From the IMG/VR virus record IMGVR_UViG_3300020138_000013, positions 1-39,344 of that record: a stretch of 39,344 bases of DNA. The stretch is one strand, 5' to 3'. Shown here in pieces: positions 1,687 to 3,071 of this stretch. A program made the position numbers and the translations under genes. The first letter of the stretch is position 1. Each line of letters begins with the position of its first letter. The notes under the pieces are model-generated. The model was given only the letters and a program-made list of their open reading frames with translations. It did no database searches and had not been told where the DNA came from. The stretch comes from a virus. Its lineage: Duplodnaviria > Caudoviricetes.

Positions 1687-1762
1687 TGGTACTACCGCCG
1701 GGGAACGATCCCGGAAAGGCCCCTTATAAGGAGGCTATTATAACCAATTTAATTACGGTAGC
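1687..1762 (-). tRNA. trnI: tRNA-Ile(UAU)
   Basis: Cloverleaf: acceptor GCTACCG/CGGTAGT, anticodon arm GCCTC-CTTATAA-GGGGC, T arm CCGGG-ATCGTTC-CCCGG, encoded CCA. Confidence 0.9.
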
Positions 1763-1771
1763 ATAAAATCT

Positions 1772-1846
1772 TGGAGCAGGTAGTCAGTAACGATCTGACT
1801 ATTCTAGTTTGGAAGACTAGTGTGTATCCATAAACACTTTACCTGC
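1772..1846 (-). tRNA. trnG: tRNA-Gly(UCC)
   Basis: Acceptor GCAGGTA/TACCTGC, anticodon arm CTAGT-CTTCCAA-ACTAG, U73 discriminator, encoded CCA. Confidence 0.92.
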
Positions 1847-1847
1847 A

Positions 1848-1936
1848 TGGCACCGCCTGGATGAATCGAACATCACGGCTCCACCCCTCTGCTTTTATGC
1901 CTCAAGTTTAGAAGACTCGTGAGGGGAACAGGCGGC
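1848..1936 (-). ncRNA. tRNA-like RNA with UCU (Arg) anticodon-like loop, 8-bp acceptor / 4-bp T stem and non-canonical D region
   Basis: GCCGCCTG/CAGGCGGT + GCCA end; GATG-TTCGATT-CATC T arm; CGAGT-CTTCTAA-ACTTG arm; CCCCTC/GAGGGG encloses the anticodon arm. Confidence 0.75.
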
Positions 1937-2560
1937 ATTAGAACTTTTTACCTTGGCCCAATACCCTCTAGGGGGTTTATTGATACCAAACTTTTTACAT
2001 CTCTTTTCCACGGCCTTGTCTGAAACACCATAGATTTTTGCAACCTCCACAGTCGGCATTTCCCACACAAGGTTTTGTAATTCTTCTTTTGTGGGGTTAA
2101 ACTTCATTACAAGTTTATGTGAGCACTCAGAAGAACAGCAAACCGTTCCTTGTAGATTTTTCAATCTCTTACCCTCTGCTGCAAAGAAAATACTAAAACA
2201 TACAGGACACAAAAATACTTCCCACCTTGCACGTTTAGATACAACCCCATTCACCACTACTGAACCATTTTCTATCCTTTCTCTAAGGTGTTTCCTAGCA
2301 TGATCCTCGCAGGAAAGCAATTCCAAATTTTCGTAGGAATTGTTGCTCCGGTCTTCATCTTTGTGGTGGACATGAAGGCTTCTATCAAAATCTGGATTAT
2401 GCAACCACACCACATACCTATGTTCATACACCTTTCCTGCCTTATTTGCCAGGGTGTGGTATGGTGCATAGGCGTAGAAATAGCCATTCTTGTCGCGCCT
2501 AAATTTATGCTTAGGTATTTCCCTTAAATTCTTATTCTCTCCCTTCATATTTACTTTCAA
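1895..2560 (-). CDS. Free-standing HNH homing endonuclease with Zn-ribbon and C-terminal HTH
   Basis: YEHR...HVHHKDEDRSNNSYENLELLSCEDH motif, CPVC/CSSEC cysteines, TVEVAKIYGVSDKAVEK HTH; start uncertain (TTG 2560 or ATG 2548). Confidence 0.85.
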   Translation of the reverse strand: MKVNMKGENKNLREIPKHKFRRDKNGYFYAYAPYHTLANKAGKVYEHRYVVWLHNPDFDRSLHVHHKDEDRSNNSYENLELLSCEDHARKHLRERIENGSVVVNGVVSKRARWEVFLCPVCFSIFFAAEGKRLKNLQGTVCCSSECSHKLVMKFNPTKEELQNLVWEMPTVEVAKIYGVSDKAVEKRCKKFGINKPPRGYWAKVKSSNAACSPHESSKLEA

Positions 2561-3042: not shown

Positions 3043-3071
3043 ATTGTACAGCATGTTTTCTGATTTGTCAA
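3043..3071 (-). promoter_or_regulatory. Sigma70-type promoter for the RNA/tRNA cluster
   Basis: TTGACA-17nt-TACAAT. Confidence 0.85.

Follow-up and report, generated by a model that had tools for sequence, protein, structure and literature searches.

Can a gene that has no room for a D hairpin encode a working tRNA? The question is raised by an 89-nucleotide (nt) locus on the minus strand of the phage record IMGVR_UViG_3300020138_000013 (Duplodnaviria; Caudoviricetes), which was analyzed over its whole length of 39,344 bases and is referred to here as the window. A first-pass annotation, made from the sequence alone, had described the locus as a tRNA-like RNA with a UCU loop and a rearranged D arm. 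As judged from comparison of its relatives, the locus is a real and conserved non-cloverleaf tRNA gene with a predicted pseudoknot, both of whose unusual helices (a and b) covary. We call it the rewired gene, and it likely encodes a working tRNA-Arg(UCU) built on this putative pseudoknotted core.

Read along the minus strand from 1936 to 1848, the sequence contains the elements that had been claimed for it: an 8-bp acceptor stem, a 4-bp T stem, a UCU arm, and a CCA end (Table 1). Several canonical features are present, namely a 5-bp anticodon stem, a 7-nt loop with U33 and a purine at position 37, the T loop, and N73-CCA; the branch is 8/4 rather than the usual 7-bp acceptor stem and 5-bp T stem. 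Only 9 nt separate the acceptor from the anticodon stem, which leaves no space for a D hairpin, in agreement with the first-pass annotation. Its two proposed long-range pairings are also present: CCCCTC with GAGGGG located 3′ of the anticodon arm (helix a), followed by UGGA, and the GGC/GCC pseudoknot (helix b). Sequence and covariation together give the strand order acceptor, a, anticodon arm, b, linker, a′, GGA, b′, T arm, acceptor. This order would correspond to a transposition of one block, the D-stem 5′ strand plus the D loop, into the loop of a 2- to 4-bp variable-arm stem (b/b′). Helix a would then stack on the anticodon stem in the fashion of a D stem, and the GG would still reach the T loop, so that the L shape and the marks read by arginyl-tRNA synthetase (ArgRS; A20, C35, U36, and G73) would be retained.

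The prediction that tRNA finders may miss such a gene held. ARAGORN leaves it uncalled in the window, and its best Rfam match is to tRNA-Sec (RF01852) at 21.8 bits, compared with a gathering score of 47; the canonical tRNA model (RF00005) gives no match at E values up to 10, and the gene thus falls short of the canonical tRNA threshold. Its relatives behave similarly: ARAGORN called no rewired member at 51 homologue loci and a single one (L086, as tRNA-Arg) in a later set, and over 10 homologue loci the RF00005 threshold was reached by a 7/5 member in L170 (32 bits) and by no 8/4 member. A structural descriptor matched once in the window, at the rewired gene, and had no match in 60 dinucleotide shuffles or in the tRNA cluster of phage T5. 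The folding energy is not significant (z = −1.34 versus shuffles). The minimum-energy fold includes the acceptor stem, helix a, and the anticodon arm, and the pair probability of the T stem is just 0.17 in a pseudoknot-free ensemble.

Relatives were collected from several sources. BLAST returned unannotated copies from Acinetobacter phages and from Escherichia phage Av-05; when the Av-05 copy served as query, 308 of the 455 phage records that matched, mostly near-identical Vibrio phages, covered at least 80% of it. Pattern scans of IMG/VR gave at least 130 distinct matches; 120 were parsed, and these, among the matches listed, are the 120 members referred to below, while 10 of 130 failed the stem thresholds and were excluded (8 chance-like; L083 and L101 member-like). 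In the GTDB scan 38 of 116 loci were parsed and 78 left out; in the metagenome scan 71 of at least 116 loci were parsed, with 45 of 116 left out. L491, which has the same sequence as the window and is not independent, was not counted, and no claim is based on the unpublished genomes G107 and G120. An exact-pattern scan of viral contigs using the window's own 3′ core gave no matches, and no close relative of the window phage was found for comparison of the orthologous slot. Altogether, there are at least 197 distinct family sequences including the window: 174 with UCU, 21 with GUA, 1 with CCU, and 1 with ACG, proportions that are biased because the search patterns favored UCU.

The family spans phages, metagenomes, and bacterial accessory tRNA arrays, the bacterial members sitting in arrays of 8 to 31 tRNA genes; the cultured phages Av-05, Abraxas, D51, and Nitrincola phage 1M3-16 carry an unannotated member. 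Rewired tRNA-Tyr(GUA) genes occur in six metagenome-assembled genomes (MAGs) of Planctomycetota (L316, L333, L370, L395, L408, and L409) and in two viral loci (L195 and L201); 31 canonical tRNAs are present in the L316 array, Arg(UCU) among them, but no canonical Tyr. Two rewired paralogues, one CCU and one UCU, lie ∼200 nt apart in L127 (917 through 1004 and 1125 through 1213). Arrays with the rewired gene in two Pyrinomonadaceae MAGs (L314 and L319) are flanked by Ro60/TROVE, RtcB, and HNH genes. Inspection by eye revealed additional ACG and UCG members, belonging to a 7/5 subtype, in L170 and L304. In L170, a 362-kb viral contig, a run of tRNA-Arg genes comprises canonical CCU; rewired 7/5-type UCG, UCU, and ACG; and canonical UCU. 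The 7/5 subtype retains U8-A9 and may be a link between the rewired family and canonical tRNAs.

Variation across the 120 members supports the unusual topology. The acceptor stem has its eighth pair in 117, and in 109 the T stem could not form a fifth (three members are 7/5); the five positions of helix a are paired in 110, 120, 119, 120, and 119 members. Helix b was left unspecified in every search pattern; at least three of its Watson-Crick pairs form in 102 of 120 (85%), compared with 15% (maximum 23%) when partners were exchanged between sequences; for 77 representatives of <80% identity the corresponding values are 83% and 14%. A MAFFT alignment that was not fitted to structure contains two-sided changes in four of five helix-a pairs and in all three pseudoknot pairs, and 90.4% of its cells are paired versus 37 to 51% in slid controls. 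To limit the effect of relatedness, 56 non-overlapping nearest-neighbor pairs were picked by means of the remaining stems: of 67 helix-a columns with a change, 64 are still paired, 50 by two-sided change, and in 30 of the 37 pairs that differ in b the swapped partner pairs worse. Of the 120 members, 119 keep the GG, as do 37 of 38 unselected ones, and an A comes next in 36 of 38 members whose recovery did not require GGA; the T loop is canonical. Both pairings of the first-pass annotation are thereby supported.

How does this architecture relate to known RNAs? The rewired gene shares with canonical tRNA-Arg(UCU) (RF00005; for example, that of T5) the 12-bp acceptor/T branch, the anticodon arm, the T loop, the GG, N73-CCA, the equivalents of A20, C35, U36, and G73, and a syntenic array slot. 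It differs in having no D hairpin, in a D 5′ strand and D loop displaced to the 3′ side of the anticodon arm, in its two interlocked helices, and in being 8/4 and not 7/5. Closer in branch type are the (8/4) allo-tRNA, tRNA-Ser, and tRNA-His genes (PMC5389517), with which it shares the 8/4 branch, occurrence in phages and Acidobacteria, and a weak score with the tRNA-Sec model. Allo-tRNAs, however, are cloverleaves with a long tRNA-Sec-like D stem-loop (tetraloop) and a long V arm (PMC5389517), whereas the rewired gene has neither a D stem-loop nor a V-arm hairpin, its variable region being a 2- to 4-bp pseudoknot helix. In the supplementary table of PMC5389517, the sole UCU row is a 9/3 tRNA with a D hairpin. 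The gene is not a tRNA-Sec either, as its anticodon is UCU rather than UCA and its score lies below the gathering value.

A link to Y RNAs, to which the first-pass annotation had pointed, was not borne out: Rfam gives no Y RNA or tmRNA match, a scan of 43 window open reading frames (ORFs) gave no Ro60 hit, and the full anticodon arm is present. In the tRNA-like domains of Y RNA and tmRNA that arm is absent or replaced. The human D-armless mitochondrial tRNA-Ser(GCU) offers a partial parallel, as the strand in place of its D arm likewise base-pairs to the variable region and lies stacked on the anticodon stem (PMC9427863). The D loop, tertiary core, and elbow have been lost from that RNA (PMC9427863); the rewired family, in contrast, keeps GG(A), a canonical T loop, and a 5- to 6-bp helix and adds a pseudoknot, and so falls outside this class. 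Like the bacterial L-arrays (PMC8421152), the arrays holding bacterial rewired members are long and accessory, yet the array descriptions used from that source contain no non-cloverleaf member; in the Anabaena array, 23 of 26 tRNAs are charged in vivo (PMC8421152). According to PMC11551756, all known bacterial tRNAs are cloverleaves, and Escherichia coli can be evolved to use a D-armless tRNA. The terms “pseudoknot,” “phage,” and “permut” do not occur in the available portion of the review PMC7609411, and no earlier description of the rewired topology was found in the open-access papers searched.

Several lines of evidence point to a working tRNA. The sequence has the Arg identity elements A20, C35, U/G36, and A/G/U73, with the A after GG taken to occupy position 20 in three dimensions. 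Over the family, the acceptor end follows the anticodon: UCU members have U, G, or A at position 73 in 169 of 174 cases (U 75, G 55, A 39, and C 5), and among the 21 GUA members 20 have A73 and 19 have G1-C72. These bases match the bacterial Arg and Tyr identity sets (PMC9976931). CCA is encoded in 132 of the 174 UCU members. The genomic slot is informative as well. In syntenic arrays of Pyrinomonadaceae-type Acidobacteriota, the position between Val(UAC)/Thr(CGU) and Met-Ala is occupied by the rewired gene in 10 cases and by canonical tRNA-Arg(UCU) in 2 (L713 and L721); 12 array regions were hand-picked, 10 on account of a canonical match, with no rewired gene in any of these, and 2 because the rewired gene had matched. 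Canonical Arg(UCU) is found in none of the 19 loci that have a rewired UCU gene and at least eight other tRNAs, compared with Gln(UUG) in 17, Cys in 14, and Asn in 13; canonical Tyr is found in none of three tRNA-rich rewired-GUA loci. In the window, all three tRNA genes have anticodons for A-ending codons, and AGA accounts for 151 of 544 Arg codons (42 ORFs).

For the window phage, these findings suggest the following course. The RNA would be transcribed from the promoter match at 3071 through 3043, released by RNase P and then trimmed at its 3′ end, and charged with arginine by the ArgRS of the host; it would decode AGA during infection, supplementing or replacing the host tRNA-Arg(UCU). The single base (1847) between it and tRNA-Gly, noted in the first-pass annotation, makes its proposed co-processing with that tRNA plausible.

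Other observations weigh against a working tRNA-Arg. A canonical Tyr pattern occurs elsewhere in four of five carrier genomes (Planctomycetota), and canonical Arg(UCU) is present in carrier G085 and many of its relatives as well as in two of five Verrucomicrobiota. Bacterial carriers thus mostly keep the canonical gene elsewhere, and the rewired gene would therefore be accessory. The idea that it is the sole essential tRNA in some bacteria was abandoned: five of five Pyrinomonadaceae-type genomes had seemed to be rewired-only, but the pattern was too strict and a looser search found canonical Arg(UCU). Over whole phage records exclusion is weak, with canonical Arg(UCU) in 2 of 43 UCU carriers versus 9 of 35 controls (p = 0.010; 45 of 51 loci were searched, 2 being GUA carriers, and the controls were chosen for tRNA-Asn and read by eye); among tRNA-rich phage carriers it is present in 2 of 16 (p = 0.47). 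In L170 the rewired and canonical forms are neighbors, and a canonical Tyr lies close to the rewired one in L430 and L486. The bacterial arrays are mutually related and hence not independent. Finally, GGA is also found in Tyr members, where the pattern imposed it, and may be structural rather than an Arg mark.

The first-pass annotation had left two functions open, a decoy for host anticodon nucleases and an atypical tRNA-Arg. As a decoy or inhibitor, the gene would express a tRNA mimic that binds or absorbs such nucleases or tRNA-binding defense proteins and goes unused on the ribosome. Occurrence in phages and in accessory arrays, those checked having Ro60/TROVE, RtcB, and HNH genes as neighbors, would suit this role, as would the almost invariant UCU loop, the use of tRNA-cleaving defenses by hosts (PMC10264068), and the existence of allo-type tRNAs that are charged yet unused in translation (PMC5389517). 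A decoy, however, would need neither a discriminator and first pair that track the anticodon nor slot-for-slot replacement of a canonical gene, and PMC10264068 proposes nuclease-insensitive working tRNAs, the word “decoy” being absent from its text. We therefore consider this explanation unlikely and favor the atypical tRNA-Arg, because the gene fills the tRNA-Arg(UCU) slot and its acceptor-end identity bases follow the anticodon.

The overlap of the rewired gene with its upstream neighbor raises a different possibility. The last 42 bases of a free-standing HNH endonuclease ORF, overlooked in the first-pass annotation, are the first 42 of the rewired gene, the stop codon (1897 through 1895) lying in the linker between helices b and a, and an RNase P cut at 1936 would be expected to sever the HNH message ahead of its stop codon. 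In T5, the 3′ ends of hegC and hegD overlap the 5′ end of the next tRNA gene in the same way (AY543070), but the overlapped tRNAs are canonical and T5 has no rewired member. HNH, PD-(D/E)XK, or GIY-YIG genes end beside five other family members. The rewired RNA could thus be a processing signal, cut by RNase P to punctuate the HNH-tRNA transcript, or homing cargo in the form of a recoded, nuclease-immune gene, with little translational role. This is improbable: only 47 of 137 members with at least 450 nt of upstream flank have an ORF of at least 90 aa ending nearby, and of the 9 suspects among these 47 that were scanned with Pfam, 5 encode nucleases, of three families. Furthermore, a processing signal would not need a conserved anticodon. 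A fixed HNH plus tRNA cassette was rejected, as the rewired RNA lies within 1.5 kb in none of 37 loci with relatives of the window HNH. A phmmer search with the window's four HNH proteins against the 47 upstream ORFs found nothing at E = 0.01, and an Rfam scan of the region revealed no clear canonical tRNA-Arg stub upstream of the HNH gene. The HNH gene is likely a free-standing homing nuclease in a tRNA cluster and dispensable for the rewired family.

We give slightly less weight still to a missense adaptor that reads AGA but carries an amino acid different from arginine (serine, for instance, by way of G73 and a variable region resembling an arm), an idea put forward for some allo-tRNAs. The 8/4 branch and G73 resemble those of allo-tRNAs, and allo-tRNAs of the 9/3 type that bear AGA/AGG anticodons exist (PMC5389517); the long variable hairpin is nevertheless absent, the discriminators of the 174 UCU members fit the Arg set, and the fold is also used by other Arg anticodons (CCU, ACG, and UCG). 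A decayed or scrambled tRNA pseudogene with chance pairings, compatible with the modest folding z and the lack of an Rfam family at threshold, is very hard to reconcile with at least 197 distinct members, compensatory changes in all five helices, and a descriptor unmatched in 60 shuffles.

Beyond the working tRNA-Arg of the window, a more general proposal can be put forward only tentatively. Bacterial ribosomes may use a family of charged pseudoknotted tRNAs (Arg, Tyr, and probably others), which phages and mobile arrays would have adopted because the reordered core escapes host tRNA-cutting defenses, or nucleases that cut the canonical gene, while synthetases still read it. Nuclease-insensitive phage tRNAs have been proposed before (PMC10264068).

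The surroundings of the gene are those of a tailed phage. The record encodes myovirus structural genes, a DNA polymerase, and a primase/helicase, almost all on the minus strand, and its capsid protein is 38 to 43% identical to those of Limnohabitans, Curvibacter, and Pseudomonas KPP10-like phages. The other two tRNA genes of the cluster, tRNA-Gly(UCC) and tRNA-Ile(UAU), have T loops that begin with A (AUCG, not UUCG), as does the rewired member of the Acinetobacter phages (L002); a UAU anticodon is uncommon among bacteria. Between a 55-codon ORF (2909 through 2742) and the HNH gene lies a noncoding stretch of ∼170 nt (2570 through 2741, minus strand) with an 11- to 12-bp bulged stem and two small hairpins; it folds like shuffles, and a homologue search was empty. 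We rejected the possibility that the rewired gene is the 3′ end of a larger RNA or intron: Rfam gives no support across 1600 through 3400, and 2545 through 2790 folds like shuffles, with no homologue found. Elsewhere, a group I intron (RF00028, 94.5 bits; 38493 through 38714, minus strand) lies at the 3′ end of the terminase large subunit ORF. The portal gene is split into ORFs 37581 through 38315 and 35813 through 36538 with an HNH ORF between them, and 36539 through 37615 (minus strand) has two sub-threshold group I intron matches (31.7 and 22.3 bits); the interruption is likely an intron carrying a homing endonuclease.

Table 1. Features of the rewired gene and its neighborhood (window coordinates)
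Feature	Position	Strand	Remarks
Rewired (non-cloverleaf) tRNA-Arg(UCU)-type gene	1848..1936	-	89 nt; encoded CCA
Acceptor stem, 5′ strand	1929..1936	-	8 nt; pairs with 1852-1859; first pair G-U
Helix a, 5′ strand CCCCUC	1921..1926	-	Covariation; presumed place of the D-stem 3′ strand, via A26 into the anticodon stem
Anticodon arm	1903..1919	-	5 bp, 1919-1915/1907-1903; loop CUUCUAA; anticodon UCU 1912-1910
Helix b, 5′ strand GGC	1899..1901	-	Pseudoknot with 1877-1879; covariation
Helix a, 3′ strand GAGGGG	1884..1889	-	Covariation; presumed displaced D-stem 5′ strand
UGGA, displaced D-loop motif	1880..1883	-	Putative G18 G19 A20 equivalents
Helix b, 3′ strand GCC	1877..1879	-	Covariation
T arm	1860..1874	-	4 bp, 1874-1871/1863-1860; loop UUCGAUU
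Acceptor 3′ strand, discriminator, and CCA	1848..1859	-	Acceptor 1859-1852; G73 at 1851; CCA 1850-1848
Canonical tRNA-Gly(UCC)	1772..1846	-	1 nt (1847) downstream of the rewired gene; ARAGORN, Rfam
Canonical tRNA-Ile(UAU)	1687..1762	-	ARAGORN, Rfam
Free-standing HNH endonuclease ORF	1895..2560	-	Pfam HNH_3, E 2e-9; PHROG 15471
Sigma-70-type promoter match, 11/12	3043..3071	-	Match to consensus alone; would drive short ORF, HNH, and three tRNA genes

If the working tRNA-Arg is confirmed, the rewired gene would represent a natural and widespread tRNA that reaches the L shape by another order of the backbone, and synthetases, EF-Tu, and the ribosome would be reading shape rather than strand order. 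Inventories of phage tRNAs would then list too few tRNA-Arg(UCU) genes, with consequences for tests of the codon-compensation and nuclease-evasion hypotheses, and the fold may offer a new scaffold for engineered tRNAs. The proposal is directly testable because cultured phages carry the gene unannotated.
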